Below, in pieces: positions 7,451 to 64,000 of a stretch of DNA of 64,000 nucleotides. The notes beneath the pieces were generated by a model. That model was not told where the DNA came from and did not search any database. It saw nothing but the letters and a program-made list of their open reading frames with translations. How positions within the stretch are numbered: position 1 is the stretch's first letter; each line of letters opens with the position of its first letter. The DNA is taken from positions 90,522,001-90,586,000 of the forward strand of contig NC_086097.1 in NCBI RefSeq assembly GCF_963921235.1, written 5' to 3'. The stretch comes from Mobula hypostoma. Taxonomy: Eukaryota. A program made the position numbers and the translations under genes.

Positions 7451-7609
7451 ACAGTGCTAAATAATACTATTAATTTTGTTGCACTCTTTTCCATTCATTC
7501 ACTTGCCACTCCATTTGGAACTTTATTTTAATACTTTAGATATCAGATACATTTTGCTGGCAATTATATACTCCTCGAAGTATAGTCATAGCTGTAATGA
7601 CATAGCTGT

Positions 7610-26188: not shown

Positions 26189-28950
26189 CCCTTCATTTTT
26201 CTTTCATCGATGTACCTATCTAAGAGTCTCTTAAATGTCCCTAATGTTACTGCCTCTACCACCACCTCTGGCACCATAGTCTATGCACCTATCATTCTCT
26301 GTGTACAAAAACCTGCCTTTGACATGCCCTTTATATTTTTCTCCTAACATCCTAAAGCTATGGCCACTTGTAATAACCACCTTCACCCTGGGAAAATGTC
26401 TCTGGCTGTCTACTCTATCTGTACCTCTTATCATCTTGTATAACTCTATTGAGTCACCTGCCATCATTTTTTGCTCCAAAGAGAAGAGCCCTAGCTCACT
26501 CCAACCTATGCTCATAAGACATGCTTTCTAACCAAGGCAGCAACTTGGAAAATTCCCTCTGCATCCTCTCTAAAGCTTCCACATCCTTCCTGTAACGAGG
26601 TGACCAGAAGTGAATAGAATACTTCAAGTGTCGTCTAACCAGAGTTTTACAGAGCTACAACATTACCTTATGGCTCTTGAACTCAATCCCCCAAGAAATA
26701 AAGCTCAAAACGTTATATGTCTTCCTACCCACCATATCAACTTGTATGGCAACTTTGAAGGATTGATGGACTTGAACCCCCAGTTCCCTCTATTCTTCTG
26801 CACTGCTAAGAATCCTGTCACTAACTCTATATTTTGCCTTCAAGTTTCAAAAGTGAATCACTTCACATTTTTCTGGACTGAATGCCATCCGTCATTTCTC
26901 AGTCAAGCTCTGCATCCTGTCAATGTCCCATTGTAACCTAGGACAACCTACTACACTATCCACAACACCACCAATCTTCGTATTATCTGTAAACTTACTA
27001 GCCCACCATTCCAGTTCTTCATCCAAGTCATTTATAAAAATCACAAAGAGCAGGGGCCCTAGAGCAGATCCCTGCGAATCACTACTGGTCACCAACCTCC
27101 AGGCAGAATATGCTCCATCCACTACCACCCTTTACCTTCTATAGGCAAGTCAATTCTAAATCCATACAGCCAAGTTTCCCTGAATCTATTCCAACTTTCT
27201 GAATAAGCCTACTGTGCTGATTACTGATTTAACTAAAATCTATATACATTTTTTTTCTTGAGACATTGTAAGTGTTCCTTACTTTGATGTACTCTTGTTA
27301 ATTTTGGATAATAGTAATAAAAAGATTTGAAAAGTAAATCTATATACATCGCATCCACTGCTCTAACTTCATCTATATGTTTGATCTCTTTCTCAAATAA
27401 TTCAATCAGAGTCATGAGGTGTGACCTGTCCCTCTTAGAGCCATGTCCCTAATCACATTATATTTCTCCAAATGATCGTAAATCCTCTCTCTAAGAATCC
27501 TTACCAATTGTTCACTAACCGCTGGACAATAATTCCCAGGGTTATCCCTATTACCTTTCTTAAACAAAGGAATAGCATTTGCCAACCTCCAGCCACCTGG
27601 CATTATTCCTGTGGCCAGTGAGGGTGCAAAGGTTATCACCGAAGGTGCAGCAATCTCTTCTCTCTCTTCCTGGAGAACCCTGGGGTATATCCAATTGGGC
27701 CTCAGGGACTTTTCTATCCTAAAGTTTTTCAAAAGTTCCAGCATATTCTTTTTCTTAATATTGACACGTACCATCATATCAGCCTGCTCTACGCTGACCT
27801 CACATTCGTCAAAGTCCCTCTTACTGGTGAATATTGAAGAAAAGTATTCATTAAGGACCTCCCCTAACTCTAGGCACATGTTTCCTCTTTTATCTCTAAT
27901 TGGTTCTACCCTCGCTCTAGTCATCCTCCTGTTCTTCACGACTGTCTTAGGGTTTCCTTAGTCCTACTTGTCAAGGCCTTCTCATGTCTCCAAGTCCATT
28001 CTTAAGCTTCTTCTGGCTACCTTCTATCTCTCAAGAGTCCTGTTTGATCTTTGCTTCCTAACCTTAAGAATGCTTCTTTCTTCCTTCTGACTGGATATTC
28101 CACATCTTTTGTCAACCATTGTCACCTTTAACCTGCCATTATTTTCTGCTCAATGGGACAAACCTATCCAGAACCTCATGCAAGTGCTCCCTAAACGGCC
28201 TTCACATTTTTCTTGTACATTTCTCTGAGCACATCTGCTTCCATGTTTCTGCCTAATAGCATCATAATCCCCCCCATCTCTAACTAAGTGCTTTCCCATA
28301 CTGCCTGCTGTGATCCCTGTCCAAGATTATGGTAAAGGTCATGCATTGTGGTCACTGTGTCTGGAATGTTCACCAAGCAAGAGGTCTGTCACCTGAACAG
28401 GTTCATTGCCTAGTTCCAGATTTAATATGGCCTCTTCTCTAGTCAGCCTGTTTACATATTGTATTAGGAATCCTTCCGGGCACAGCTAGCAAATTCTACC
28501 CCATGTAAACCTTTTGCACTGAGGAGGTCCCATTCAATATTAGGGAAGTTGGAATGACTTATGATAACAACCCTGTTGTTTTTGCATCTTTCCAAAATCT
28601 GGCTCCCGATCTGCACCTCAGTGTCTCTGTTACTAATGGGATGGGGTCTATAGAGTAATCCCAATAGAGTCATTGCTCCCTTCCGGTTTCTGACACTGGC
28701 TACTGTCAATCACTCCATGATGCCCTCCCTTTCTGCAGCCGTGATACTTTCCCTGTTTATCATGACACTTTCCCACCTATTGTTAGCTCCCTCCCTGTGC
28801 CTTTTGAAAAATCTAAATGCTGCAACAATTAGCAGCCATTCCTGCCTTTGTGACAGCCAAGTCTCTGTAATAGCCACAACGTTGTATTTCCAGGGACTGA
28901 CCCACATTGACCTTTGTTTGTTATTTGCCATGTTGTAAGATGTGGACCAT

Positions 28951-29181
28951 GCAATACACACAAAATGCTGGAGGAACACAATAGGCCATGCAGCATCTAT
29001 GGAAAAGAGTGAACAGTCGACGTTTCGGGCCGAGACCCTTTAGCAGGTGTCCTGATGAAGGGGTTTGACCCAAAATGTCAACTGTTCACTCTTTTCTGTA
29101 GATGCTGCCTGGCCCACTGAATTCCTCCAGCATTTTATATGCTTTGCTTTGATTTCCAGCATTTGCAAATTTCCTCTTGTT
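28951..29181. mobile_element. Palindromic pair of Penelope pseudo-LTR fragments
   Basis: Left arm 28951-29047 is an imperfect reverse complement of right arm 29051-29147; 3-nt spacer; each arm has a decayed hammerhead motif. Confidence 0.8.
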
Positions 29182-42817: not shown

Positions 42818-44658
42818 TTTTCAGTTGAAGACATTGTGCGATGAGGAAATTGCAACCTGGATCATTTTTGGACATTTCAGAAATCTTCCTGCTCCTTTAG
42901 CATTCCAACCCGAGACATCTGGCCAATCTCTTCCCATTACACTCCCTCCCCCAACCTTCCCACTGCTTCACATACCTGGGCAATTATTATCGTGCTGCTG
43001 TTGGTATGTTGTTGTCTCAAACTTCATTTTAAGGTTACCAGTGATCCATCGGATAGATGTAGTGTACAACTTCAATGAAATATATTGTTCACTGTGGTGT
43101 GTGGAAAGAAATATTTATATAAAGCCTTTCACTATCTCAGGACACCTCAGGACACTCAAAAGGCAATGAAGTGGTTATTAATGTATGGAGGGGAATGTGC
43201 CAGACAATTGGAGAAGGACAGGTCATCACATAGAATTGAACAGCACAGTAAAAGGTCCTTTGGTCCTCTGAATCTATGTCAACCTTTAAATACCTAATTA
43301 CACTTTGTCTATACTTAAATCATTTTATTCTCCCATACACCCATCAATTCACCCAGATTCTGCCCCTCATGTACACACTTAGGCCAATATACAGCAACTG
43401 AAGAACTCAGTAACTACGCACATTTGGAATATGGAGGAAACTGAGGTGCCCAGACGAAATCCACACAGTCTTCGGGGGAATGTACACATTCCACACTGGT
43501 ACTAGGAATGTTAACCTTACTACAGCCATAAGAGAAGAGACCTTCCTTCCGCTGGTGCTTCTGGGCACCTTTAATGGGCTTTTGATTCACACATGCCCTG
43601 GGATTTGGGCAACTTGTGAAGAAGCAAGAGAAGGCAAAGAAAGGCTTCTGCCAGTATAGAGCCATACCGGTGATGTATGGCCGCTCAGACTTTGTTGCAT
43701 TTGGTTCCTAGGCCCATTTGCCCTTTTCTTTAGATTCTAAATGCAGTAGATCTTGGACCAGGCCTGGTCTGGTTCTAAATAAGGATCTTGGCCTGAAACA
43801 TCGACTACTTATTGATTTCCATAGATGCTGCCTGACCTGCTGAGTTCCTCCAGCATTCTGTGTGTGTTGCACTGGTTAGGTGCCACTTTTGTAAAATGAG
43901 GAAGCCTTTGTGTTAGGGCGGGGACGAGGCAAAGAGGATGAGCGGGAGAAGTAAGTGTGAACATAGTACCACTCTCTACGGTCTCCAGCCTTTCGCTAGC
44001 TATTACCACATTGGTATTTCAGCCCCATTTCACCAGGAACCAGTACCTAATCTGTTTGCTCAACCTGCCAGATTTTGCAAAGCAAGTGAGAAAAACTAGT
44101 CAGTCAACATATATCAGTGGATGCTATCCATAGATGCTGCCTGACTTGCTGAGTTCCTCCCATCCCATCCCATTTTTCATCCTATCCAATCCTTGGGTGC
44201 TTCCTTCCAATAGACTTGAAGTTCTACCAGTCAAGAACTCCCTCTGACACTACTTCTGGCACAAGGATCTTGATGTCGGTGCCAAGGAAATCGAGGTGCT
44301 TACTCTTGGATCTGTGACAATCACCTTATCTTGTATTCCCCAAGCCCTCACCATTGATTGGGTTCAGTGCTCAGCTCTCATTAGGAGAAGGAACCATGGT
44401 GTGATGTGACACAAGATCGTTTCACCTGGTTCATGATACCACCGATATCCTGTGGCCCTAGGAAAGACATCAATCACCATTGGTGTCTCCTAAACACTTC
44501 AGTCCTGGCATAAGGTACAGACAAATATCAGCAGGACAAAAAGCACTATGTTCTTTCATGTAAACAACAGGAATTCTGCAGATGCTGGAAATTCAAGCAA
44601 CACACATCAAAGTTGCTGGTGAACGCAGCAGGCCAGGCAGCATCTCTAGGAAGAGGTA

Positions 44659-44696
44659 CAGTCGACGTTTCAGGCCGAGACCCTTCGTCAGGACTA
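44659..44696 (-). ncRNA. Minimal type I hammerhead ribozyme motif (PLE-type)
   Basis: Minus strand: agtc-CUGACGA-agggtctcggcct-GAAA-C-GUC-gact; stem I agtc/gact, palindromic ACGU in place of helix III. Confidence 0.8.
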
Positions 44697-45192
44697 ACTG
44701 AAGGAAGAGTGAGTAAGAGATTTGAAAGTTGGAGGGGGAGGGGGAGATCCAAAATGATAGGAGAAGACAGGAGGGGGAGGGATGGAGCCAAGAGCTGGAC
44801 AGGTGATAGGCAAAAGGGATACGAGAGGATCATGGGACAGGAGGTCCGGGAAGAAAGACAAGGAGAGGTGTGACCCAGAGGATGGGCAAGGGGTATAGTC
44901 AGAGGGACAGGGGGAGAAAAAGGAGAGTGAGAAAGAATGTGTGTATAAAAATAAATAACAGATGGGGTATGAGGGGAAGGTGGGGCATCAACGGAAGTTA
45001 GAGAAGTCAATGTTCATGCCATCAGGTTGGAGGCTACTCAGACGGAATATAAGGTGTTATCCCCTTTGCCAATGACCTGTCCAGCTCTTGGCTCCATCCT
45101 TCCCCCTCCTGTCTTCTCCTATCATTTTGGATCCCCCCCTCCCCTCCCCTCCCCCTCCCACTTTCAAATCTCTTACTAACTTTTCCTTCAGT

Positions 45193-45230
45193 TAGTCCTG
45201 ACGAAGGGTCTCGACCTGAAACGTCGACTG
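45193..45230 (+). ncRNA. Minimal type I hammerhead ribozyme motif (PLE-type)
   Basis: agtc-CUGACGA-a-gggt(ctcg)acct-GAAA-C-GUC-gact; predicted cleavage after C45225. Confidence 0.8.
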
Positions 45231-45757
45231 TATCTCTTCCTAGAGATGCTGCCTGGCAACTTTGATGTGTGTTACATGTTTTTTCATGTCTTTTAATTTT
45301 GAGGCCTTGAGCTACCAGTGGCCTTTTTGCCGTGTTGGTTTGAATTAATTGTTACCATCCTGTGTCCTTGGGTGTAGGAATTTTGTACTCAATCTGCAGG
45401 TCTGATGTTGATGTTCATTGGCTGTGTGTCTAGTTTGAAAGAACATGCTCTTTTACAGAAGGAAGAAATCAATCATTTTATCCTGCACAATATCCAAGCT
45501 TAAAGCTTTAGCTCTTCACAGCATCACATGTTCCTAGGCTAATACTAGTCATTAATAAAGACTCTCTCAATAGATACTCTGCACTAACAGACACTTTCTG
45601 TTGACACCCTATATTGATAAATCTATGCATGATAGGTATTTTCCCTTATTGATTGATACCATTGAATAATTCTCTTTATACTAATAGATAATTTACTGGC
45701 AGATCATTTTTATTAATAGATATTCCACACTGATAGATGGTCTGTATTAGTGGATAT

Positions 45758-46110
45758 TATCAGGGCGCTGGAGCAGGGATCCAATCACAGACCCAGTACT
45801 GAGCACACAGTGATATTAATTGAGTAACAAATCCGGAGGTGCAAACAAAGTCAGCGTCAAAGTTCAGGCAGAGATCAAAACATCCAGAGAAATCCAAACA
45901 CCAGAATTGGGAAACAGGCAGAGTCGATATTCGGATGGAAAGAGTACAGATACGAATGCTGGAAAGGCTCAGGAAATTTCACTGGCACAATCTGGCAACA
46001 AACAGGTGAAAATACAGGACTGAAATACACTGAGCAATAAACAGAGAGGCAGATGATAGGTGGAGCACAATGAGACACGGGTGGCAGCAATACAGGTAAT
46101 AATGAGAAAC
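45758..46110 (-). mobile_element. Probable older LTR (3' part), interrupted at 46111
   Basis: Reverse complement ends gggtctgtgattggatccc...ccctgata (decayed TGACA terminus) and is T-rich like fish Gypsy-type LTR R/U5; sequence character changes abruptly at 46111. Confidence 0.5.
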
Positions 46111-46828
46111 TGTCATGGTCTAGTCCGCGAAATCTGCATTCCGGTTCACGGTCCGGTCCATGGACTCAGGACTCCGGGTCTTCCAGCTGTCCCTTTTTGA
46201 CTAAATCAAAGGCACCTGATTCCCATCTTTGGGCTTGCAATATAAGTAGCCTTGGGATTGAGTGTGGGCTGCTGGTTTGTCTTATCAGTCCCCCTTGGAG
46301 CAACCTGCTGGTGGAAGGCTAGTGCAGCCAATTGGCATCTTTAGGCTGTGTCGGGGAAACATCCCCTCATGGAGCCTTGCTGTCAATAGTTGAAGCTATC
46401 TTTGTGGTATGGATTTGGCTGTTCCTGGGCCAGCTGAGTGGCTGCCAACTGCTCTGATCTAGGTAGGGATCCGGCTGTTTCCTGGGCCAGCTGAGGTTGA
46501 TGGCTGAACTGAGACGCGGAGCTACCCTGGAGCAAAGATGGAACTGTCTGTTGTTCTTCGTTGTTTGTCTCTTGTCCTCGCCTCTGTGGGGTAAGTCAGG
46601 CTGTCTTGCTGTTGCCCTGTGGGGGGACATGTCTTGTCTTTGCCTCTGTTGGGTAAGTCTGATTGTCCTGCTATTACTCAACAGGTGGACCTGTTCCACC
46701 TTGGTGTGGAGACGTAGATGAGTCCTGGCTTATCGAAGGATAAATCCCGGCTCTAGGTTGATGTTCAGTTCCCAGTCTGTCTCTTAGCTCCAGTCTCCGA
46801 GTAATCAGCCTCCACATTTCACGACAAA
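46111..46828 (+). mobile_element. Probable LTR 5' part (Gypsy-like) leading directly into the satellite
   Basis: Starts TGTCA; CACCTG (46213-46218) ~28 bp upstream of TATAAG (46241-46246); internal short direct repeats (cctgggccagctgag x2; gcctctgt.gggtaagtc x2). The 3' terminus is not in the window. Confidence 0.6.
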
Positions 46829-49800
46829 GATCCCGCAGCCAAGCTGCGAGAGCCCAAGCCTCAGGGACCCCGCAGCCGAGCTCCGAGAGCCCAAGCCTCG
46901 AGGGCCCCGCAGCCGAGCTCCGAGAGCCCAAGCCTCGAGGGCCCCGCAGCCGAGCTCCGAGAGCCCAAGCCTCGAGGATCCGGCAGCCGAGCTCCAAGAA
47001 CCCAAGCCTCGAGGATCCCGCAGCCGAGCTCCAAGAACCCAAGCCTCGAGGATCCAGCAGCCGAGCTCCAAGAACCCAAGCCTCGAGGATCCCGCAGCCG
47101 AGCTCCAAGAACCCAAGCCTCGAGGATCCCGCGGCCGAGCCCCAAGAACCCAAGCCTCGAGGATCCCGCAGCCGAGCTCAGGGCCCAAGATCCCAGCACC
47201 CAAGCCTCGAGGATCCCGCAGCCGAGCTTCAAGAGCCCAAGCCTCTAGGATCCCGCAGCCGAGCTCCAAGATCCGATGTCTCGAGGAACCCGCAGCTGAG
47301 CTGCAGGCTCAAGACCCAAGGCTCGAGGACCGTGCAGCCGAGCCCAAGGCCCAAAACCCCAGCACCCAAGCATCGAGGACCCCGCATCCGAGCAACAAGA
47401 ACCGAAGCCTCGAGGATCCTGCATCCGAGCTCCAAGAACCCAAGCCTCGAGGTTCCCCCAGCCGAGCCCCAAGAACCCAAGCCTGGAGGATCCCGCGGCC
47501 GAGCTCCAAGAACCCAAGCCTGGAGGATCCCGCGGCCGAGCTTCGAGAACCCAAGCCTGGAGGATCCCGCGGCCGAGTTCAAAGAACCCAAGCCTCGAGG
47601 ATCCCCCGGCCGAGCTCCAAGAACCCAAGCCTGGAGGATCCCGCGGCCGAGCTCCAAGAACCCAAGCCTGGAGGATCCCGCGGCCGAGCTCCAAGAACCC
47701 AAGCCTGGAGGACCCCGCGGCCGAGCTCCAAGAACCCAAGCCTCGAGTATCCCGCGGCCGAGCTCCAAGAACTCAAGCCTGGAGGACCCCGCGGCCGAGC
47801 TCCAAGAACCCAAGCCTCGAGGATTCCGCGGCCGAGACCCAGGAATCGAAGCCTCGTGGATCCCGCGGCCGAGCTCCAAGAACCCAAACCTCGAGCATCC
47901 CGCAGCCGAGCTCCAAGAACCCAAGCCTCGAGTATACCGCAGCCGAGCTCCAAGAACCCAAGCCTCGAGGATCCCGCAGCCGAGCTCCAAGAACCCAAGC
48001 CTCCAGCAGCCCGCAGCTTAGCTCCAAGAACCCAAGCCTCGAGGAGCCCGCAGCCGAGCTTCAAGAACCGAAGCCTCGAGGATCCTGCATCCGAGCTCCA
48101 AAAACCGAAGCCTCGAGGATCCCGCGGCCGAGCTCCAAGAATCCAATCCTCGAGGATCCCGCGGCCGAGCTCCAAGAACCCAAGCCTCGAGGAACCCGCG
48201 GCCGAGCCCCAGGAACCCAAGCCTCGAGGCTCCCGCGGCCGAGCCCCAGGAACCCAAGCCTCGAGGTCCCGCGGCCGAGCCCCAGGAACCCAAGCCTCGA
48301 GGAACCCGCGGCCGAGCTCCAAGAACCCAAGCCTCGAGGATCCCACAGCCGAGATCCAAGAACCCAGGCCTCTAGGAACCCGCAGCTGAGCTCCAAGAAC
48401 CCAAGCCTCGAGGATCCCGCATCGAGTTGCAGGCTCAAGACCCAAGGCTTAAGGACCATGCAGACGATCCCGAGGCCCAAGGCCCAAGACTCCTGTACCC
48501 AAGCCTCAAGGACCCCGCAGCCGAGCCCAAGACCCCAGCACTGAAGCCACGAGGATCCTGCAGGTGAGCTCCAAGAACCCAAGCCTCGAGGATCCCGCAG
48601 CCGAGCTCCAAGAACCCAAGCCTCGAGGATCCCGCAGCCGAGCTCCAAGAACCCAAGCCTCGAGGATCCCGCAGCCGAGCTCCAAGAACCCAAGCCTGGA
48701 GGATCCCGCAGCCGAGCTCCAAGAGCCCAAGCCCCGAGGATCCTGCAGCCGAGCTGCTAGAATCCAAACCTCGAGGATCCAGCTGCCGAGCTCCAAGAAC
48801 CCAAGTCTCGAGGATCCCGCAGCCGAGCTCAGGGCCCAAGATCCCAGCACCCAAGCCTCGAGGATCCCGCAGCCGAGCTTCAAGAGCCCAAGCCTCTAGG
48901 ATCCCGCAGCCGAGCTCCAAGATCCGATGTCTCGAGGAACCCGCAGCTGAGCTGCAGGCTCAAGACCCAAGGCTCGAGGACCGTGCAGCCGAGCCCAAGG
49001 CCCAAAACCCCAGCACCCAAGCATCGAGGACCCCGCATCCGAGCAACAAGAACCCAAGCCTCGAGGATCCTGCATCCGAGCTCCAAGAACCCAAGCCTCG
49101 AGGATCCCGCAGCCGAGCCCCAAGAACCCAAGCCTCGAGGATCCCGCGGCCGAGCTCCAAGAACCCAAGCCTCGAGGATCCCGCGGCCGAGCTCCAAGAA
49201 CCCAAGCCTGGAGGATCCCGCGGCCGAGCTCCAAGAGCCCAAGCCTCGAGGATCCCGCGGCCGAGATCCAAGAACCCAAGCCTGGAGGATCCCGCGGCCG
49301 AGTTCCAAGAACCCAAGCCTGGAGGATCCCGCGGCCGAGTTCCAAGAACCCAAGCCTGGAGGATCCCGCGGCCGAGTTCCAAGAACCCAAGCCTGGAGGA
49401 TCCCGCGGCCGAGTTCCAAGAACCCAAGCCTGGAGGATCCCGCGGCCGAGTTTCAAGAACCCAAGCCTGGAGGATCCCACGGCTGATCTCCAAGAACCCA
49501 AGCCTCGAGGATCCCGCAGCCGAGCTCAGGGCCCAAGATCCCAGCACCCAAGCCTCGAGGATCCCGCAGCCGAGCTTCAAGAGCCCAAGCCTCTAGGATC
49601 CCGCAGCCGAGCTCCAAGATCCGATGTCTCGAGAATCCCGCGGCCGAGCTCCAAGAACCGAAGTCTCGAGGATCCCACAGCCGAGCCCAAGGCCCATGAT
49701 CCCAGCAACCAAGCCTCGGGGATCCTGCAGCCGAGCTCCCAGAACCCAAGCCTCGAGGATCCCGCAGCCGAGCTCCAAGAACCCAAGCCTCGAGGATCCC

Positions 49801-52800
49801 CCAGCTGAGCCCCAAGAACCCAAGCCTGGAGGATCCCGCGGCCGAGCTCCAAGAACCCAAGCCTGGAGAATCCCGTGGCCGAGCTTCAAGAACCCAAGCC
49901 TGGAGGATCCCGCGGCCGAGTTCAAAGAACCCAAGCCTCGAGGATCCCCCGGCCGAGCTCCAAGAACCCAAGCCTCGAGGATCCCGCGGCCGAGCTCCAA
50001 GAACCCAAGCCTGGAGGATCCCGCGGCCGAGCTCCAAGAACCCAAGCCTGGAGGATCCCGCGGCCGAGCTCCAAGAACCCAAGCCTGGAGGATCCCGCGG
50101 CCGAGCTCCAAGAACCCAAGCCTCGAGGATCCCGCGGCCGAGCTCCAAGAACCCAAGCCTCGAGGATCCCGCGGCCGAGCTCCAAGAACCCAAGCCTCGA
50201 GGATCCCGCGGCCGAGCTCCAAGAACCCAAGCCTCGAGGATCCCGCAGCCGAGCTCCAAGAACCCAAGCCTCGAGGATCCCGCGGCCGAGCCCAAGGCCC
50301 ATGATCCCAGCAACCAAGCCTCGGGGATCCTGCAGCCGAGCTCCCAGAACCCAAGCCTCGAGGATCCCGCAGCCGAGCTCCAAGAACCCAAGCCTCGAGG
50401 ATCCCGCAGCCGAGCTCCAAGAACCCAAGCCTCGAGGATCCCGCAGCCGAGCTCCAAGAACCGAAGCCTCGAGGATCCTGCATCCGAGCTCCAAAAACCG
50501 AAGCCTCGAGGATCCCGCGGCCGAGCTCCAAGAATCCAATCCTCGAGGATCCCGCGGCCGAGCTCCAAGAACCCAAGCCTCGAGGAACCCGCGGCCGAGC
50601 CCCAGGAACCCAAGCCTCGAGGATCCCGCGGCCGAGCCCCAGGAACCCAAGCCTCGAGGATCCCGCGGCCGAGCCCCAGGAACCCAAGCCTCGAGGATCC
50701 CGCGGCCGAGTCCCAGGAACCCAAGCCTCGAGGATCCCGCGGCCGAGATCCAAGAACCCAGACCTCTAGGATCCCGCAGCTGAGCTCCAAGAACCCAAGA
50801 CTCGAGGATCCCGCATCGAGTTGCAGGCTCATGACCCAAGGCTTAAGGACCATGCAGACGATCCCGAGGCCCAAGGCCCAAGACTCCTGGACCCAAGCCT
50901 CAAGGACCCCGCAGCCGAGCCCAAGGCCCAAGACCCCAGCACTGAAGCCACGAGGATCCTGCAGGTGAGCTCCAAGAACCCAAGCCTCGAGGATCCCGCA
51001 GCCGAGCTCCAAGAACCCAAGCCTCGAGGAGCCCGCAGCCGAGCTCCAAGAACCCAAGCCTCGAGGATCCCGCAGCCGAGCTCCAAGAACCCAAGCCTCG
51101 AGGATCCCGCGGCCGAGCTCCAAGAACCCAAGCCTGGAGGATCCCGCGGCCGAGCTCCAAGAGCCCAAGCCCCGAGGATCCTGCAGCCGAGCTGCTAGAA
51201 TCCAAACCTCGAGGATCCAGCTGCCGAGCTCCAAGAACCCAAGCCTCGAGGATCCCGCAGCCGAGCTCAGGGCCCAAGATCCCAGCACCCAAGCCTCGAG
51301 GATCCCGCAGCCGAGCTTCAAGAGCCCAAGCCTCGAGGATCCCGCAGCCGAGCTCCAAGATCCGATGTCTCGAGGAACCCGCAGCTGAGCTGCAGGCTCA
51401 AGACCCAAGGCTCGAGGACCGTGCAGCCGAGCCCAAGGCCCAAAACCCCAGCACCCAAGCATCGAGGACCCCGCATCCGAGCAACAAGAACCGAAGCCTC
51501 GAGGATCCTGCATCCGAGCTCCAAGAACCCAAGCCTCGAGGATCCCCCAGCCGAGCCCCAAGAACCCAAGCCTCGAGGATCCCGCGGCCGAGCTCCAAGA
51601 ACCCAAGCCTCGAGGATCCCGCGGCCGAGCTCCAAGAACCCAAGCCTGGAGGATCCCGCGGCCGAGCTCCAAGAACCCAAGCCTCGAGTATCCCGCGGCC
51701 GAGCTCCAAGAACTCAAGCCTGGAGGACCCCGCGGCCGAGCTCCAAGAACCCAAGCCTCGAGGATTCCGCGGCCGAGACCCAGGAATCGAAGCCTCGTGG
51801 ATCCCGCGGCCGAGCTCCAAGAACCCAAACCTCGAGCATCCCGCAGCCGAGCTCCAAGAACCCAAGCCTCGAGTATACCGCAGCCGAGCTCCAAGAACCC
51901 AAGCCTCGAGGATCCCGCAGCCGAGCTCCAAGAACCCAAGCCTCTAGCAGCCCGAAGCTTAGCTCCAAGAACCCAAGCCTCGAGGAGCCCGCAGCCGAGC
52001 TTCAAGAACCGAAGCCTCGAGGATCCTGCATCCGAGCTCCAAAAACCGAAGCCTCGAGGATCCCGCGGCCGAGCTCCAAGAATCCAATCCTCGAGGATCC
52101 CGCGGCCGAGCTCCAAGAACCCAAGCCTCGAGGAACCCGCGGCCGAGCCCCAGGAACCCAAGCCTCGAGGAACCCGCGGCCGAGCCCCAGGAACCCAAGC
52201 CTCGAGGATCCCGCGGCCGAGCCCCAGGAACCCAAGCCTCGAGGTCCCGCGGCCGAGCCCCAGGAACCCAAGCCTCGAGGATCCCGCGGCCGAGCTCCAA
52301 GAACCCAAGCCTCGAGGATCCCACAGCCGAGATCCAAGAACCCAGGCCTCTAGGAACCCGCAGCTGAGCTCCAAGAACCCAAGCCTCGAGGATCCCGCAT
52401 CGAGTTGCAGGCTCAAGACCCAAGGCTTAAGGACCATGCAGACGATCCCGAGGCCCAAGGCCCAAGACTCCTGTACCCAAGCCTCAAGGACCCCGCAGCC
52501 GAGCCCAAGGCCCAAGACCCCAGCACTGAAGCCACGAGGATCCTGCAGGTGAGCTCCAAGAACCCAAGCCTCGAGGATCCCGCAGCCGAGCTCCAAGAAC
52601 CCAAGCCTCGAGGAGCCCGCAGCTGAACTCCAAGAACCCAAGCCTCGAGGATCCCGCAGCCGAGCTCCAAGAACCCAAGCCTCGAGGATCCCGCGGCCGA
52701 GCTCCAAGAACCCAAGCCTCGAGGATCCCGCGGCCGAGCTCCAAGAACCCAAGCCTCGAGGATCCCGCAGCCGAGCTCCAAGAACCCAAGCCTCGAGGAT

Positions 52801-55800
52801 CCCGCAGCCGAGCTCCAGGAACCCAAGCCTCGAGGAACCTGCGGCCGAGCTCCAGAACCCAAGCCTCGTGGATCCCGCGGCCGAGCTCCAGGAACCCAAG
52901 CCTCGAGGATCCCGCGGCCGAGATCCAGGAACCCAAGCCTCGAGGATCCTGCGGCCGAGCTCCAGGAACCCAAGCCTCGAGGATCCCGCGGCCGAGCTCC
53001 AGGAACCCAAGCCTCGAGGATCCCGCGGCCGAGATCCAAGAACCCAAGCCTGGAGGATCCAGCGGCCGAGCTCCAGGAACCCAAGCCTCGAGGATCCCGC
53101 GGCCGAGCTCCAGGAACCGTAGCCTCGAGTAACCCGTGGCCGAGCTCCAGGAACAGAAGCCTCGAGGATCCCGCGGCCGAGCTCCAGGAACCCAAGCCTC
53201 GAGGATCCCGCGGCCGAGCTCCAAGAACCCAAGCCTCGAGGATCCCGCGGCCGAGCTCCAAGAACCCAAGCCTCTAGGAGCCCACAGCTGAGCTCCAAGA
53301 ACCCAAGACTCGACGATCCTGCGGCCGAGCTCCAAGAACCCAAGACTCGACAATCCTGTGGCCGAGCTCCAAGAACCCAAGCCTCGAGGATCCCGCAGCC
53401 GAGCTCCAAGAACCCAAGCCTCTAGGAGCCCACAGCTGAGCTCCAAGAACCCAAGACTCGACGATCCTGCGGCCGAGCTCCAAGAACCCAAGCCTGGAGA
53501 AACCCGCGGCCCAGCTCCAAGAGCCCAAGCCCCGAGGATCCTGCAGCCAAGCTGCTAGAATCCAAACCTCGAGGATCCCGCAGCCGAGCTCCAAGAGCCC
53601 AAGCCTCGAGGATCCCGCAGCCGAGCTCCAAGAACCCAAGCCTCTAGGAACCCGCAGCTGAGCTCCAAGAACCCAAGCCTCGAGGATCCTGCATCGAGTT
53701 GCAGGCTCAAGACCCAAGGCTTAAGGACCATGCAGACGATCCCGAGGCCCAAGGCTCAAGACTCCTGTACCCAAGCCTCAAGGACCTCGCAGCCGAGCCC
53801 AAGGCCCAAGACCCCAGCACTGAAGCCTCGAGGATCCCGCAGCCGAGCTCCAAGAACCCAAGCCTCGAGGATCCCGCAGCCGAGCTCCAAGAGCCCAAGC
53901 CTGGAGGATCCCGCAGCCGAGCTCCAAGAGCCCAAGCCCCGAGGATCCCGCAGCCGAGCTGCTAGAATCCAAACCTCGAGGATCCAGCTGTCGAGCTCCA
54001 AGAACCCAAGCCTCGAGGATCCCGCAGCCGAGCTCAGGGCCCAAGATCCCAGCACCCAAGCCTCGATGATCCCGCGGCCGATCTCCAAGAACCCAAGCCT
54101 CGAGGATCCCGCGGCCGAGCTCCAAGAACCCAAGCCTCGAGGATCCCGCGGCCGAGCTCCAAGAACCCAAGCCTGGAGGATCCCGCGGCCGAGCTCCAAG
54201 AACCCAAGCCTCGAGGATCCCGCGGCCGAGCTCCAAGAACCCAAGCCTCGAGGATCCCGCGGCCGAGCTCCAAGAACCCAAGCCTCGAGGATCCCGCAGC
54301 CGAGCTCCAAGAACCCAAGCCTCGAGGATCCCGCGGCCGAGCTCCAAGAACCCAAGCCTGGAGGATCCCGCGGCCGAGTTCCAAGAACCCCAGCCTGGAG
54401 GATCCCGCGGCCGAGTTCCAAGAACCCAAGCCTGGAGGATCCCGCGGCCGAGCTCCAAGAACCCAAGCCTCGAGGATCCCGCGGCCGAGCTCCAAGAACC
54501 CAAGCCTCGAGGATCCCGCGGCCGAGCTCCAAGAACCCAAGCCTCGAGGATCCCGCGGCCGAGCTCCAAGAACCCAAGCCTGGAGGATCCCGCGGCCGAG
54601 CTCCAAGAACCCAAGCCTCGAGGATCCCGCGGCCGAGCTCCAAGAACCCAAGCCTCGAGGATCCCGCGGCCGAGCTCCAAGAACCCAAGCCTCGAGGATC
54701 CCGCGGCCGAGCTCCAAGAACTCAAGCCTGGAGGTTCCTGCGGCCGAGCTCCAAGAACCCAAGCCTGGAGGTTCCCGCGGCCGAGCTCCAAGAACCCAAG
54801 CCTGGAGGTTCCCGCGGCCGAGCTCCAAGAACCCAAGCCTGGAGGACCCCGCGGCTGAGCTCCAAGAACCCAAGCCTCGAGGATCCCGCGGCCGAGATCC
54901 GAGAACCCAAGCCTCGAGGATCCCGCGGCCGAGATCCGAGAACCCAAGCCTCGAGGATCCCGCGGCCGAGCTCCAAGAACCCAAGCCTCGAGGATCCCGT
55001 GGCCGAGCTCCAAGAGCCCAAGCCTCGAGGATCCCGCAGCCGAGCTCCAAGAGCCCAAGCCTCGAGGATCCCGCAGCCGAGCTCCAAGAACCCAAGCCTC
55101 TAGGAGCCCACAGCTGAGCTCCAAGAACCCAAGACTCGACGATCCTGCGGCCGAGCTCCAAGAACCCAAGCCTGGAGAAACTTGCGGCCCAGCTCCAAGA
55201 GCCCAAGCCCCGAGGATCCCGCGGCCGAGCTCCAAGAACCCAAGCCTCGAGTATCCCGCGGCCGAGCTCTAAGAACTCAAGCCTGGAGGACCCCGCGGCC
55301 GAGCTCCAAGAACCCAAGCCTCGAGGATCCCGCGGCCGAGCTCCAAGAACCCAAGCCTACAGGATCTCGCGGCCGAGCTCAAAGAACCGAAGCCTCGAGA
55401 TACCGCAGCCGAGCTCCAAGAACCGAAGCCTCGAGATCCCGCGGCCGAGCTCCAAGAACCGAAGCCTCGTGGATCCTGCAGCCGAGCTGCTAGAATCCAA
55501 ACCTCGAGGATCCAGCTGCCGAGCTCCAAGAACCCAAGCCTCGAGGATCCCGCAGCCGAGCTCAGGGCCCAAGATCCCAGCACCCAAGCCTCGAGGATCC
55601 CGCAGCCGAGCTCAGGGCCCAAGATCCCAGCACCCAAGCCTCGAGGATCCCGCAGCCGAGCTCCAAGAGCCCAAGCCTCGAGGATCCCGCAGCCGAGCTC
55701 CAAGAACCCAAGCCTCGAGGATCCCGCGGCCGAGCTCCAAGAACTCAAGCCTGGAGGTTCCCGCGGCCGAGCTCCAAGAACCCAAGCCTGGAGGTTCCCG

Positions 55801-58800
55801 CGGCCGAGCTCCAAGAACCCAAGCCTGGAGGACCCCGCGGCCGAGTTCCAAGAACCCCAGCCTGGAGGATCCCGCGGCCGAGTTCCAAGAACCCAAGCCT
55901 GGAGGATCCCGCGGCCGATCTCCAAGAACCCAAGCCTGGAGGATCCCGCGGCCGATCTCCAAGAACCCAAGCCTGGAGGATCCCGCGGCCGATCTCCAAG
56001 AACCCAAGCCTGGAGGTTCCCCCGGCCGAGCTCCAAGAACTCAAGCCTGGAGGTTCCTGCGGCCGAGCTCCAAGAACCCAAGCCTGGAGGTTCCCGCGGC
56101 CGAGCTCCAAGAACCCAAGCCTGGAGGTTCCCGCGGCCGAGCTCCAAGAACCCAAGCCTGAGGACCCGCGGCCGAGCTCCAAGAACCCAAGCCTCGAGGA
56201 TCCCGCGGCCGAGCTCCAAGAACCCAAGCCTCGAGGATCCCGCAGCCGAAGCTCCAAGAGCCCAAGCCCCGAGGATCCCGCAGCCGAGCTCCAAGAACCC
56301 AAGCCTCGAGGATCCCGCGGCCGAGCTCCAAGAACCCAAGCCTCGAGGATCCCGCAGCCGAGCTCCAAGAGCCCAAGCCTCGAGGATCCCGCGGCCGAGA
56401 TCCGAGAACCCAAGCCTCGAGGATCCCGCGGCCGAGATCCAAGAACCCAAGCCTCGAGAATCCCGCAGCCGAGCTCCAAGAACCGAAGTCTCGAGGATCC
56501 CACAGCCGACAGCCGAGCCCAAGACCCCAGCACTGAAGCCACGAGGATCCTGCAGGTGAGCTCCAAGAACCCAAGCCTCGAGGATCCCGCAGCCGAGCTC
56601 CAAGAACCCAAGCCTCGAGGATCCCGCGGCCGAGCTCCAAGAACCCAAGCCTCGAGGATCCCGCGGCCGAGCTCCAAGAACCCAAGCCTCGAGGATCCCG
56701 CGGCCGAGCTCCAAGAACCCAAGCCTCGAGGATCCCGCAGCCGAGCTCCAAGAACCCAAGCCTCGAGGATCCCGCTGCCGAGCTCCAAGAACCCAAGCCT
56801 CGAGGATCCCGCAGCCGAGCTCCAAGATCCCAGCAACCAAGCCTCGAGGATCCCGCAGCCGAGCTTCAAGAACCCAAGCCTCGAGGATCCCGCAGCCGAG
56901 CTCCAAGAACCCAAGCCTCGAGGAACCCGCAGCAGAGCTGCAGGCTCAAGACCCAAGGCTCGAGGACCGTGCAGCCGAGCCCAAGGCCCAAAACCCCAGC
57001 ACCCAAGCTTCGAGGACCCCGCGAGCTCCAAGAACCCAAGCCTGAGGTCCCGCGGCCGAGCTCCAAGAACCCAAGCCTGGAGGATCCCGCGGCCGAGCTC
57101 CAAGAACCCAAGCCTGGAGGACCCCGCGGCCGAGCTCCAAGAACCCAAGCCTGGAGGATCCCGCGGCCGAGTCCAAGAACCCAAGCCTGGAGGATCCCGC
57201 GGCCGAGCTCCAAGAACCCAAGCCTGAGGATCCCGCGGCCGATCTCCAAGAACCCAAGCCTGAGGATCCCGCGGCCGACTCCAAGAACCCAAGCCTGAGG
57301 TTCCCCCGGCCGAGCTCCAAGAACTCAAGCCTGGAGGTTCCTGCGGCCGAGCTCCAAGAACCCAAGCCTGGAGGTTCCCGCGGCCGAGCTCCAAGAACCC
57401 AAGCCTGGAGGTTCCCGCGGCCGAGCTCCAAGAACCCAAGCCTGGAGGACCCCGCGGCCGAGCTCCAAGAACCCAAGCCTCGAGGATCCCGCGGCCGAGC
57501 TCCAAGAACCCAAGCCTCGAGGATCCCGCGGCCGAGTTCCAAGAACCCAAGCCTCGAGGATCCCGCAGCCGAGCTCCAAGAACCCAAGCCTCGAGGATCC
57601 CGCGGCCGAGCTCCAAGAACCCAAGCCTCGAGGATCCCGCAGCCGAGCTCCAAGAACCCAAGACTCGAGGATCCCGCAGCCGAGCTCCAAGAACAGAAGT
57701 CTCGAGGATCCCACAGCCGAGCTCAGGGCCCAAGATCCCAGCACCCAAGCCTCGAGGATCCCGCAGCCGAGCTTCAAGTGCCCAAGTCTCGAGGATCCCA
57801 CATCCGAGGTGCAAGAGCGCAAGCCTCGAGGATCTCGCAGCCGAGCTCCAAGAACCGAAGTCTCGAGGAACCCGCAGCCGAGCTGCAGGCTCAAGACCAA
57901 AGGCTCGAGGACCGTGCAGCCGAGCCCAAGGCCCAAGGCCGAAGGCCCAAGACTCCCACACCCAAGCCTCGAGGAGCCCGCAGCCGAGCTCCAAGAACCG
58001 AAGCCTCGAGGATCCCGCAGCCGAGCTCCAAGAACCCAAGCCTCGAGGATCCCGCGGCCGAGCTCCAAGAACCCAAGCCTCGAGGATCCCACAGCCGAGC
58101 TCCAAGAACCCAAGCCTGGAGGATCCCGCGGCCGAGCTCCAAGAGCCCAAGCCCCGAGGATCCTGCAGCCGAGCTGCTAGAATCCAAACCTCGAGGATCC
58201 AGCTGCCGAGCTCCAAGAACCCAAGCCTCGAGGATCCCGCAGCCGAGCTCAGGGCCCAAGATCCCAGCACCCAAGCCTCGAGGATCCCGCAGCCGAGCTT
58301 CAAGAGCCCAAGCCTCTAGGATCCCGCAGCCGAGCTCCAAGATCCGATGTCTCGAGGAACCCGCAGCTGAGCTGCAGGCTCAAGACCCAAGGCTCGAGGA
58401 CCGTGCAGCCGAGCCCAAGGCCCAAAACCCCAGCACCCAAGCATCGAGGACCCCGCATCCGAGCAACAAGAACCGAAGCCTCGAGGATCCTGCATCCGAG
58501 CTCCAAGAACCCAAGCCTCGAGGATCCCCCAGCCGAGCCCCAAGAACCCAAGCCTGGAGGATCCCGCGGCCGAGCTCCAAGAACCCAAGCCTCGAGGATC
58601 CCGCGGCCGAGTTCCAAGAACCCAAGCCTCGAGGATCCCGCGGCCGAGCTCCAAGAACCCAAGCCTGGAGGATCCCGCGGCCGAGCTCCAAGAACCCAAG
58701 CCTGGAGGATCCCGCGGCCGAGCTCCAAGAACCCAAGCCTCGAGGATCCCGCGGCCGAGCTCCAAGAACCCAAGCCTCGAGGATCCCGCGGCCGAGCTCC

Positions 58801-61800
58801 AAGAACCCAAGCCTGGAGGATCCCGCGGCCGAGCTCCAAGAACCCAAGCCTCGAGGATCCCGCGGCCGAGCTCCAAGAACCCAAGCCTCGAGGATCCCGC
58901 GGCCGAGCTCCAAGAACCCAAGCCTCGAGGATCCCGCGGCCGAGCTCCAAGAACCCAAGCCTCGAGGATCCCGCGGCCGAGCTCCAAGAACCCAAGCCTC
59001 GAGGATCCCGCGGCCGAGCTCCAAGAACCCAAGCCTCGAGGATCCCGCAGCCGAGCTCCAAGAACCCAAGCCTCGAGGATCCCGCGGCCGAGCTCCAAGA
59101 ACCCAAGCCTCGAGGATCCCGCGGCCGAGCTCCAAGAACCCAAGCCTGGAGGTTCCCGCGGCCGAGCTCCAAGAACCCAAGCCTGGAGGTTCCCGCGGCC
59201 GAGCTCCAAGAACCCAAGCCTGGAGGTTCCCGCGGCCGAGCTCCAAGAACCCAAGCCTGGAGGTTCCCGCGGCCGAGCTCCAAGAACCCAAGCCTGGAGG
59301 ACCCCGCGGCTGAGCTCCAAGAACCCAAGCCTCGAGGATCCCGCGGCCGAGCTCCAAGAACCCAAGCCTGGAGGATCCCGCGGCCGAGCTCCAAGAACCC
59401 AAGCCTCGAGGATCCCGCAGCCGAGCTCCAAGAGCCCAAGCCTCGAGGATCTCGCATCCGAGGTCCAAGAGCCCAAGCCTCGAGGATCCCGCAGCCGAGC
59501 TGCAAGAATCCAAACCTCGAGGATCCCGCAGCCGAGCTCCAAGAACCCAAGCCTCGAGGATCCCGCAGCCGAGCTCAGGGCCCAAGATCCCAGCACCCAA
59601 GCCTCGAGGATCCCGCAGACGAGCTTCAAGTGCCCAAGTCTCGAGGATCCCACATCCGAGGTGTAAGAGCGCAAGCCTCGAGGATCTCGCAGCCGAGCTC
59701 CAAGAACCGAAGACTCGAGGAACCCGCAGCCGAGCTGCAGGCTCAAGACCAAAGGCTCGAGGACCGTGCAGCCGAGCCGAGGCCCAAGGCCCAAGGCCCA
59801 AGACTCCCACACCCAAGCCTCGAGGAGCCCGCAGCCGAGCTCCAAGAACCGAAGCCTCGAGGATCCTGCATCCGAGCTCCAAAAACCGAAGCCTCGAGGA
59901 TCCCGCGGCCGAGCCCCAGGAACCCAAGCCTCGAGGAACCCGCGGCCGAGCTCCAAGAACCCAAGCCTCGAGGAACCCGCGGCCGAGCTCCAAGAACCCA
60001 AGCCTCGAGGTCCCGCGGCCGAGCCCCAGGAACCCAAGCCTCGAGGAATCCGCGGCCGAGCCCCAGGAACCCAAGCCTCGAGGAACCCGCGGCCGAGCTC
60101 CAGGAACCCAAGCCTCGAGGATCCCGCGGCCGAGCTCCAAGAACCCAAGCCTCGAGGATCCCGCGGCCGAGCTCCAGGAACCCAAGCCTCGAGGAACCTG
60201 CGGGCGAGCTCCAGGAACCCAAGCCTCGAGGATCCCGCGGCCGAGCTCCAAGACCCCAAGCCTCGAGGATCCCGCGGCCGAGCTCCAAGAACCCAAGCCT
60301 CGAGGATCCCGCGGCCGAGCTCCAAGAACCCAAGCCTCGAGGATCCCGCGGCCGAGCTCCAAGAACCCAAGCCTCGAGGATCCCGCGGCCGAGCTCCAAG
60401 AACCCAAGCCTCGAGGATCCCGCGGCCGAGCTCCAAGAACCCAAGCCTCGAGGATCCCGCGGCCGAGCTCCAAGAACCCAAGCCTCGAGGATCCCGCGGC
60501 CGAGCTCCAAGAACCCAAGCCTGGAGGATCCCGCGGCCGAGCTCCAAGAACCCAAGCCTCGAGGATCCCGCGGCCGAGCTCCAAGAACCCAAGCCTCGAG
60601 GATCCCGCGGCCGAGCTCCAAGAACCCAAGCCTCGAGGATCCCGCGGCCGAGCTCCAAGAACCCAAGCCTCGAGGATCCCGCGGCCGAGCTCCAAGAACC
60701 CAAGCCTCGAGGATCCCGCGGCCGAGCTCCAAGAACCCAAGCCTCGAGGATCCCGCGGCCGAGCTCCAAGAACCCAAGCCTCGAGGATCCCGCAGCCGAG
60801 CTCCAAGAACCCAAGCCTCGAGGATCCCGCAGCCGAGCTCAGGGCCCAAGATCCCAGCACCCAAGCCTCGAGGATCCCGCAGCCGAGCTTCAAGAGCCCA
60901 AGTCTCGAGGATCCCACATCCGAGGTGCAAGAGCGCAAGCCTCGAGGATCTCGCAGTCGAGCTCCAAGAACCGAAGTCTCGAGGAACCCGCAGCCGAGCT
61001 GCAGGCTCAAGACCCAAGGCTCGAGGACCGTGCAGCCGAGCCCAAGGCCCAAGGCCCAAGGCCCAAGACTCCCACACCCAAGCCTCGAGGAGCCCGCAGC
61101 CGAGCTCCAAGAACCGAAGCCTCGAGGATCCTGCATCCGAGCTCCAAAAACCCAAGCCTCGAGGATCCCGCGGCCGAGCCCCAGGAACCCAAGCCTCGAG
61201 GAACCCGCGGCCGAGCCCCAGGAACCCAAGCCTCGAGGAACGCGCGGCCGAGCTCCAAGAACCCAAGACTCGAGGAACCCACGGCCGAGCTCCAAGAACC
61301 CAAGCCTCGAGGTCCCGCGGCCGAGCCCCAGGAACCCAAGCCTCGAGGAATCCGCGGCCGAGCCCCAGGAACCCAAGCCTCGAGGAACCCGCGGCCGAGC
61401 TCCAAGAACCCAAGCCTCGAGGAACCTGCGGCCGAGCTCCAGGAACCCAAGCCTCGAGGAACCTGCGGCCGAGCTCCAGAACCCAAGCCTCGTGGATCCC
61501 GCGGCCGAGCTCCAGGAACCCAAGCCTCGAGGAACCTGCGGCCGAGCTCCAGGAACCCAAGCCTCGAGGAACCTGCGGCCGAGCTCCAGAACCCAAGCCT
61601 CGTGGATCCCGCGGCCGAGCTCCAGGAACCCAAGCCTCGAGGATCCCGCGGCCGAGCTCCAGGAACCCAAGCCTCGAGGATCCTGCGGCCGAGCTCCAGG
61701 AACCCAAGCCTCGTGGATACCGCGGCCGAGCTCCGAGAACCCAAGCCTCGAGGATCCCGCGGCCGAGATCCAAGAACCCAAGCCTCGAGGATCCCGCGGC

Positions 61801-64000
61801 CGAGCTCCCAGAACCCAAGCCTCGAGGATCCCGCAGCCGAGCTCCAAGAACCCAAGCCTCGAGGATCCCGCATCGAGTTGCAGGCTCAAGACCCAAGGCT
61901 TAAGGACCATGCAGACGATCCCGAGGCACAAGGCCCAAGACTCCTGGACCCAAGCCTCAAGGACCCCGCAGCCGAGCCCAAGGCCCAAGACCCCAGCACT
62001 GAAGCCACGAGGATCCTGCAGGTGAGCTCCAAGAACCCAAGCCTCGAGGATCCCGCAGCCGAGCTCCAAGAACCCAAGCCTCGAGGATCCCGCAGCCGAG
62101 CTCCAAGAACCCAAGCCTCGAGGATCCCGCAGCCGAGCTCCAGGAACCCAAGCCTCGAGGAATCTGCGGCCGAACCCCAGAACCCAAGCCTCGTTCATCC
62201 CGCGGCCGAGCTCCAGGAACCCAAGCCTCGAGGATCCCGCGGCCGAGCTCCAAGAACCCAAGCCTCGAGGATCCTGCGGCCGAGCTCCAAGAACCCAAGC
62301 CTCGAGGATCCCGCGGCCGAGCTCCAAGAACCCAAGCCTCGAGGATCCCGCGGCCGAGCTCCAAGAACCCAAGCCTGGAGGATCCCGCGGCCGAGCTCCA
62401 GGAACCCAAGCCTCGAGGATCCCGCGGCCGAGCTCCAGGAACCGTAGCCTCGAGTAACCCGTGGCCGAGCTCCAGGAACAGAAGCCTCGAGGATCCCGCG
62501 GCCGAGCTCCAGGAACCCAAGCCTCGAGGATCCCGCGGCCGAGCTCCAGGAACCCAAGCCTCGAGGATCCCGCGGCCGAGCTCCAAGAACCCAAGCCTGT
62601 AGGATCCCGCGGCCGAGCTCCAAGAACCCAAGCCTCTAGGAGCCCACAGCTGAGCTCCAAGAACCCAAGACTCGACGATCCTGCGGCCGAGCTCCAAGAA
62701 CCCAAGACTCGACAATCCTGTGGCCGAGCTCCAAGAACCCAAGCCTCGAGGATCCCGCAGCCGAGCTCCAAGAACCCAAGCCTCGAGGATCCCGCAGCCG
62801 AGCTCCAAGAACCCAAGCCTCGAGAAACCTGCGGCCGAGCTCCAAGAGCCCAAGCCCCGAGGATCCTGCAGCCAAGCTGCTAGAATCCAAACCTCGAGGA
62901 TCCCGCTGCCGAGCTCCAAGAACCCAAGCCTCGAGGATCCCGCGGCCGAGCTCCAAGAACCCAAGCCTCGAGGATCCCGCAGCCGAGCTCCAAGAACCCA
63001 AGCCTCGAGGATCCCGCAGCTGAGCTCCAAGAACCCAAGCCTCGAGGATCCCGCATCGAGTTGCAGGCTCAAGACCCAAGGCTTAAGGACCATGCAGACG
63101 ATCCCGAGGCCCAAGGCCCAAGACTCCTGTACCCAAGCCTCAAGGACCCCGCAGCCGAGCCCAAGGCCCAAGACCCCAGCACTGAAGCCACGAGGATCCT
63201 GCAGGTGAGCTCCAAGAACCCAAGCCTCGAGGATCCCGCAGCCGAGCTCCAAGAACCCAAGCCTCGAGGAGCCCGCAGCCGAGCTCCAAGAACCCAAGCC
63301 TCGAGGATCCCGCAGCCGAGCTCCAAGAACCCAAGCCTCGAGGATCCCACAGCCGAGCTCCAAGAACCCAAGCCTGGAGGATCCCGCGGCCGAGCTCCAA
63401 GAGCCCAAGCCCCGAGGATCCTGCAGCCGAGCTGCTAGAATCCAAACCTCGAGGATCCAGCTGCCGAGCTCCAAGAACCCAAGCCTCGAGGATCCCGCAG
63501 CCGAGCTCAGGGCCCAAGATCCCAGCACCCAAGCCTCGAGGATCCCGCAGCCGAGCTTCAAGAGCCCAAGCCTCTAGGATCCCGCAGCCGAGCTCCAAGA
63601 TCCGATGTCTCGAGGAACCCGCAGCTGAGCTGCAGGCTCAAGACCCAAGGCTCGAGGACCGTGCAGCCGAGCCCAAGGCCCAAAACCCCAGCACCCAAGC
63701 ATCGAGGACCCCGCATCCGAGCAACAAGAACCGAAGCCTCGAGGATCCCGCATCCGAGCTCCAAGAACCCAAGCCTCGAGGATCCCCCAGCCGAGCCCCA
63801 AGAACCCAAGCCTGGAGGATCCCGCGGCCGAGCTCCAAGAACCCAAGCCTGGAGGATCCCGCGGCCGAGCTCCAAGAACCCAAGCCTGGAGGATCCCGCG
63901 GCCGAGCTCCAAGAACCCAAGCCTCGAGGATCCCGCGGCCGAGCTCCAAGAACCCAAGCCTGGAGGATCCCGCGGCCGAGCTCCAAGAACCCAAGCCTGG
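46829..64000. repeat. 37-bp GC-rich tandem array (satellite), >17 kb, runs off the window
   Basis: Consensus GCCGAGCTCCAAGAACCCAAGCCTCGAGGATCCCGCG (25/37 G+C, 4 CpG); ~460 monomer-equivalents by length; pure runs e.g. 60270-60780; 37-aa periodicity in the translated ORFs (3 monomers). Confidence 0.98.

Follow-up and report, generated by a model that had tools for sequence, protein, structure and literature searches.

A 37-bp satellite array of more than 17 kb behind the 5' part of an LTR-like element in the ray Mobula hypostoma

Short arrays internal to mobile elements, and segments of long terminal repeats (LTRs), are among the sources of satellite DNA listed in the accessible parts of two accounts (PMC12628747; PMC6947457). 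The mouse Ms6-hm and Hm-2 repeats lie in MaLR LTRs (Kelly 1994, via the available portion of Table 1 of PMC9659126), and the same table gives a Gypsy LTR as the source of MALREP, a satellite of the swamp eel Monopterus albus, besides potato and maize cases. In Lathyrus sativus, short arrays within Ogre elements gave rise to nine of 11 satellites, according to the accessible text of Vondrak et al. (PMC7004042). Amplification of part of a retroelement into local tandem arrays is also described, in the available parts of the sources, for maize CRM1TR/CRM4TR (PMC3648361) and for squamate SINE-derived satellites (PMC10702118). The growth of element-internal repeats into long arrays, LTRs included, is already published for mouse, fish and plants. 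In the open literature there was no report of the repeat described here or of an LTR-borne satellite in sharks or rays; subscription papers lay mostly outside this search.

The locus lies in a window of 64,000 nucleotides of Mobula hypostoma (contig NC_086097.1, positions 90,522,001 to 90,586,000 of the forward strand), and all coordinates below count from its first letter. The original prediction was that a 37-bp minisatellite within an LTR had expanded massively while still attached to its parent element, and that it might be transcribed from the LTR promoter. On this reading, the array would resemble the Ogre/FabTR or MaLR cases in the way it works, as a satellite derived from a retrotransposon. 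As far as the accessible descriptions go, it would share with Ms6-hm and Hm-2 the origin of a vertebrate tandem array within the LTR of a dispersed element. Those mouse repeats have simple units of 4-5 bp, whereas the unit here is 37 bp long, occurs with longer variants and a kilobase block structure, and was probably tandem already in the parent family. With Ogre/FabTR, again as accessibly described, the likeness would lie in short runs at a fixed place in a dispersed LTR family that occasionally expand to long arrays, and the same two rival scenarios apply. However, the plant arrays lie downstream of gag-pol rather than behind the 5' end, and their linkage to the element is seen on long reads, whereas here it is deduced. 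MALREP, a fish satellite likewise ascribed to a Gypsy LTR in the accessible entry, is centromeric by the title of its paper; in the ray array, in contrast, the parent's 5' part is attached. The available descriptions of the maize and squamate arrays differ from the present case in their parents, and the CRM monomers consist of long LTR-UTR segments rather than an internal minisatellite.

Two nested LTR-like elements

The first 45.7 kb of the window has a GC content of about 43% and is packed with decayed LINE and SINE fragments; four of the seven reading frames scanned against Pfam match reverse transcriptase. The contig reaches at least 87.6 Mb before and at least 10.5 Mb beyond the window, so the array at the window's end is not contig-terminal. 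Several repeat pairs lie in the flank. Two LINE 3' ends (8038-8564 and 18639-19171) share 95% identity and TTACTA-type tails, and a reading frame in the first LINE region (7461-8477) has RVT_1 and ALKBH8_N matches. An inverted pair of about 1 kb (25046-26085 and 26186-27216, 72% identity) adjoins a reverse transcriptase-coding frame at 24791-25399. A SINE-like pair (44632-44821 and 45058-45257) is inverted, about 240 bp apart and 90% identical over 200 bp, and a similar self-inverted stretch (78%) lies at 28951-29147. Rfam returned no matches, and a 13-bp match to the 37-bp monomer at 21997 is chance-like and was dismissed. Beyond this flank the following features adjoin one another.

45758-46110, minus strand: older high-copy LTR-like element, host of the insertion (loose ends in runs X1 and X5, and minus-strand read-out).
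46106-46110, plus strand: predicted left copy of the target site duplication, (G)AAAC (sequence, and empty-site continuation in run X9).
46111-46828, plus strand: the 'head', the 5' part of a high-copy dispersed LTR-like element (motifs, and family boundary in contigs).

The relatives of these elements were sampled by aligning contigs from four of 24 public runs to positions 45300-46940 at 80% likeness. X1 and X14 are from organism A, X5 from organism B and X9 from organism C; X14 was taken as RNA by guess only. Individual records comprised 24 listed loose ends of 1,235 and 32 listed contig pieces of 22,317. With this method summed contig depth is not equal to copy number, and a hole in coverage proves nothing. 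Because X1, with a depth of 5 on the unique flank and no differences from the window there, is perhaps the source sample, it is not independent evidence for this locus.

The TGTCA start proposed at 46111 is present and coincides with a family boundary. TGTCA is by itself frequent (68 occurrences in 46.8 kb). However, many contigs begin at 46111 (183 in X1, 170 in X5 and 7 in X14, with 6 in X9 beginning at 46110), and the letters upstream are mixed among them (agreement 0.33-0.53), which lifts this occurrence above chance. A second pile-up of mixed-flank loose ends, before 45760, holds 117 contigs in X1 and 130 in X5; thus two high-copy families start here. Position 45758 is the decayed terminus of the older element, which is broken off at 46110. 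Read on the minus strand, this element has CACCTG (CAGGTG at 46003 on the plus strand), a TATA-like stretch and, about 60 bp before its end, a hexamer one letter off AATAAA, a layout that we take to be that of an LTR. Five X9 contigs run on in the older element past 46110 with an agreement of 0.95, and this empty site indicates that the 46111 element inserted into the older one after (G)AAAC. The terminus at 46111 is genuine: it belongs to a dispersed, high-copy family, a copy of which has inserted into the element at 45758-46110. The two elements have no similarity above shuffles (44 of 200 shuffles score as high), and a second copy of either is lacking in the 46.8 kb of non-array DNA of the window.

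LTRs begin with TG, end with CA and are flanked by target site duplications of 4-6 bp, and fish Gypsy LTRs run from TGTCA to TGACA. The head has the expected CACCTG at 46213 and TATAAG at 46241-46246. Its summed depth of 6,800-141,000, compared with 5 for the unique flank in X1, marks it as dispersed and multi-copy, and it is covered in runs of all three organisms. The small internal duplications foreseen in 46111-46828 were found as a 62-bp pair at 46570 and 46632 (74-82% identity) and a pair spaced by about 56 bp at 46406 and 46462. In other family copies, joints at 46565-46639 skip or repeat the 62-bp unit, and since the head's own duplication varies in this way the family appears repeat-prone. 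Each 62-bp copy contains a splice-donor-like GTAAGT (46591 and 46653). The CpG observed/expected ratio of the head is 0.35, and no open reading frame of more than 120 amino acids lies wholly inside it. The only match in a scan with head motifs, 25 bp (46581-46605) in a metagenome contig (L001:41-65) that is otherwise unrelated, was set aside as chance.

The proposal of an LTR with a TG start is therefore borne out in its 5' terminus, which is common to many copies of a high-copy dispersed family; as for the remainder, no 3' CA end, primer binding site, polypurine tract or gag-pol is seen in the window. TGACA, AATAAA and ATTAAA were not found on the plus strand of 46111-64000, and the window ends inside the array. 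This pattern would also suit a parent of another kind in which the array had grown in place, such as the 5' region of a different retroelement or a non-autonomous DNA transposon whose short ends read TGTCA, or an array lying in a leader behind an unrecognised LTR end; the GTAAGT motifs would fit a leader. Such a parent or position is very unlikely, given the sharp TG start shared by many copies, the order CACCTG then TATAAG, the mirror layout of the neighbouring family and the TGTCA...TGACA form of fish Gypsy LTRs. The available part of a preprint points the same way, in that batoid LTR elements belong mainly to Gypsy/DIRS1 (bioRxiv 10.64898/2026.10.27.761883). The 46111 element is best called LTR-like, on the strength of its 5' end, its TATA-like box and these family traits.

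A block mosaic of 37-bp monomers

46829-64000, plus strand: 37-bp tandem array, open at the window end (Tandem Repeats Finder and monomer segmentation).
46829-46976, plus strand: four edge monomers with private variants (sequence, monomer comparison, and letters in X1 and X5).
47162-47525, plus strand: first copy of a cassette of 50-, 37- and 42-bp variant monomers (monomer-order comparison).
50770-51688, plus strand: longest recopied block, 24 monomers and 919 bp, 99.0% identical to 63010-63928.

The array runs from 46829 straight to the window end, with the direct transition that had been claimed. Its 17,172 bp hold 458 monomers, 185 of them distinct, in a single orientation and with a GC content of 0.66; 15-mers of the commonest monomer do not occur on the opposite strand of the array. 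Most monomers (376 of 458) are 37 bp long, 18 are 50 bp and 9 are 42 bp, and since none is longer than 50 bp the array has no foreign insert. The commonest monomer has 63 exact copies (for example 48155-48191), from which the 376 37-mers differ by a mean of 2.2 changes. With more than 10 kb of head-to-tail, homogenised monomers, the array qualifies as a satellite. Three monomers folded as single-stranded DNA showed no special structure (z = -0.41), and the monomer motif had no matches in viral or in prokaryote contigs.

Identical monomers come in runs of six or seven that alternate with cassettes of variant monomers. Thirteen pairs of blocks, 364-919 bp long, are 97.6-99.5% identical, and the cassette at 47162-47525 recurs at 48813, 51251, 58233 and 63491 (98.6-99.5%). 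The 50-bp landmark of this cassette is present 12 times, unevenly spaced. Rare monomer types repeat exactly in runs of up to 10, whereas no such run exceeded 2 when monomer order was shuffled 100 times. No period stands out except multiples of 37, and a regular higher-order repeat was not found. As the recopied blocks are irregularly spaced, the array is a block mosaic rather than a regular higher-order repeat. Position 9 of the monomer toggles between two letters in long tracts: one letter is found in 16 of the first 17 monomers and in the variant cassettes, the other mostly in the homogeneous runs. This switch may mark older and newer layers of the array.

The array has a CpG observed/expected ratio of 0.79, compared with 0.35 for the head and 0.25 for the flank. 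At CpG, transitions occur 1.7 times as often as at other G/C sites (0.049 against 0.028 among 134 distinct 37-mers, with one variable CpG excluded), a mild methylation signature.

The array contains stop-free frames that could be mis-called as genes, including frames of 1,240-1,499 amino acids at 49453-53421 and 58380-62879 (minus strand) and 58181-61903 (plus strand). Frames of up to 1,499 amino acids are what a protein-coding repeat would offer, but they are found in both orientations, the unit length of 37 is not divisible by 3, and stops are even across the six frames (24-35 each). The array frames have no Pfam match and no homologues among 2,608 candidates (lengths 91-293 amino acids); seven weak matches reach 26-33%, and the two of these that were inspected are simple repeats and unrelated. 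An assembly artefact would fit just as poorly, since 185 distinct monomers in an irregular mosaic are presumably unlike a collapsed or looped assembly. Neither coding function nor artefact is a credible account of the array, and its long frames on both strands are a warning to annotators that they are not genes.

The array begins about 590 bp past TATAAG. There is no AATAAA or ATTAAA between TATAAG and the array or within it, so transcription starting at this promoter would run into the array unless the transcript were spliced from the donor-like motifs at 46591 or 46653. Read-through of the array from the putative element promoter is thus possible, to judge from the motifs. The presumed RNA run X14 is uninformative on transcription of this copy, because all eight of its listed pieces differ from the window and come from other copies, and contigs give no start or strand.

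The junction and the sister copies

Whether the 37-bp unit belonged to the element before it grew depends on what other copies of the head carry. Position 46822, seven letters before the array, is covered by 42 contigs in X1 and 62 in X5, and 99.6% of the depth there differs from the window letter, so these contigs come from other copies. Depth in the junction bin (46785-46839), as a fraction of the head median, is 0.40-0.50 in X1, X5 and X14; at 46822 itself depth drops to 1,499 in X1, about 7% of the head median. Monomer depth relative to median head depth is 2.8 in X1, 2.6 in X5 and 2.4 in X14, and the visible array accounts for about 4% of the monomer depth of X1. A relative of the 50-bp variant that is missing from the window has a depth of 98 in X1. 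In organism B the junction and the monomer are covered and the unique flank 45300-45629 is not, a hole that proves nothing. From depth and coverage, other copies probably carry the 37-bp unit too.

The picture is different in X9 of organism C, where the head is covered and monomer depth is only 0.12 per head, so that the unit is not common to all relatives of the head. The depth of X9 declines steadily from about 46720, ahead of the array start, over 46720-46940. This suggests that organism C has a subfamily with a different 3' part. The claim that the minisatellite is internal to the element thus gains from coverage across the junction and from the ratios of 2.4-2.8 in three of four runs, and loses from the low X9 value and from the fact that none of the 32 listed contig pieces (of 22,317) bridges 46829.

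An independent 37-bp satellite might instead have come to abut a 3'-truncated element by chance, through a deletion or because the array spread across the 3' half of the element. Such an abutment would explain the missing bridge among the listed pieces and organism C's possession of the head with hardly any monomer, and the head and monomer are indeed unrelated, with no similarity above shuffles (107 of 200 as high); nor is the monomer similar to the older element. It is nevertheless improbable. Contigs from other copies cover 46822 in X1, X5 and X14 with no loose end near 46829 among the 24 listed of 1,235, the monomer/head ratio is alike in three runs from two organisms, and the 46-kb flank is ordinary LINE/SINE DNA without monomers. 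Against growth from a unit internal to the element, the monomer depth could also stem from other arrays or from the part of this array beyond the window.

The edge of the array bears on its origin too. The first four or so monomers had been described as distinct. Their private variants are real: GAGAGCCC is confined to monomers 1-4, and AGGGCCCC to positions 46901 and 46938. However, these monomers differ by only two to five changes from other monomers, and 26 of the 458 monomers have three or more changes from their nearest non-adjacent neighbour. At the five edge positions listed, X1 and X5 carry the array's majority letter at 87-98% of depth. The edge variants therefore look like decay of this copy, and the possibility that the edge monomers are the parent's ancestral unit was ruled out by these letters, since the majority letters in X1 and X5 are those of the array.

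The junction could also be a recombination product, formed between the short run of the element and a large array at another place, or the family could have captured its unit from an older satellite (scenario 2 in the accessible text of PMC7004042); the far end of the array would then not be the parent's. Both versions fit the contig alignments equally well, and the far end lies outside the window. They are nonetheless unlikely, as they require an extra rearrangement, the first cassette and the edge monomers grade into the array without a break, and an old, abundant satellite sits poorly with the low monomer depth of organism C, provided that C is an outgroup.

Order of events and significance

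The remaining explanation, that an element-internal minisatellite expanded in place after insertion, with the parent's 3' half expected beyond the array, is the likely one. The order of events is set by divergence. Array blocks differ by 0.5-2.4%, while 71% of 9,495 X1 contigs are less than 95% alike to the 45300-46940 stretch; the array thus grew after this copy had landed and aged, and its blocks are much younger than the parent copy. The claim of massive expansion with the parent attached holds in this form, with more than 450 monomers behind the element's 5' part and growth that postdates insertion. It is, moreover, implausible that 17 kb or more of array passed through reverse transcription.

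The proposed course starts with a family, or a main subfamily in organisms A and B, that would bear a short run of 37-bp units and longer variants about 590 bp downstream of its TATA-like box. A copy of this high-copy LTR-like retroelement family inserted at 46110/46111 into the older repeat, as the contigs show, and its short run would then have grown in place to more than 17 kb. The pattern is one of repeated copying both of single monomers, giving the runs of six or seven, and of blocks of 0.4-0.9 kb; from established satellite biology, slippage, unequal exchange and gene conversion are the likely mechanisms. The outermost monomers would have escaped homogenisation and decayed. Beyond the array, this course predicts the parent's 3' half with TGACA at its end, followed by (G)AAAC and then the remainder of the older element. 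The array does not code for protein, and it is most likely either selfish or neutral.

The origin of a satellite usually leaves no lasting trace, whereas here the parent's 5' part is attached. The datable order of older element, insertion and block-wise growth, together with what are probably many unexpanded sister copies, makes the locus a usable case of satellite birth. It extends a mechanism known in mouse, teleosts, reptiles and plants to a cartilaginous fish. A further idea, put forward tentatively and rather doubtful, is that the family is a 'seed bank' of thousands of LTR-like copies, each with a few 37-bp units behind a promoter, of which a few ran away into satellites that are still read through. 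If so, one vertebrate genome would hold a natural series, with one seed at many sites and in many array lengths, and what triggers the step from minisatellite to satellite, be it position, transcription, methylation or seed structure, could be tested directly.
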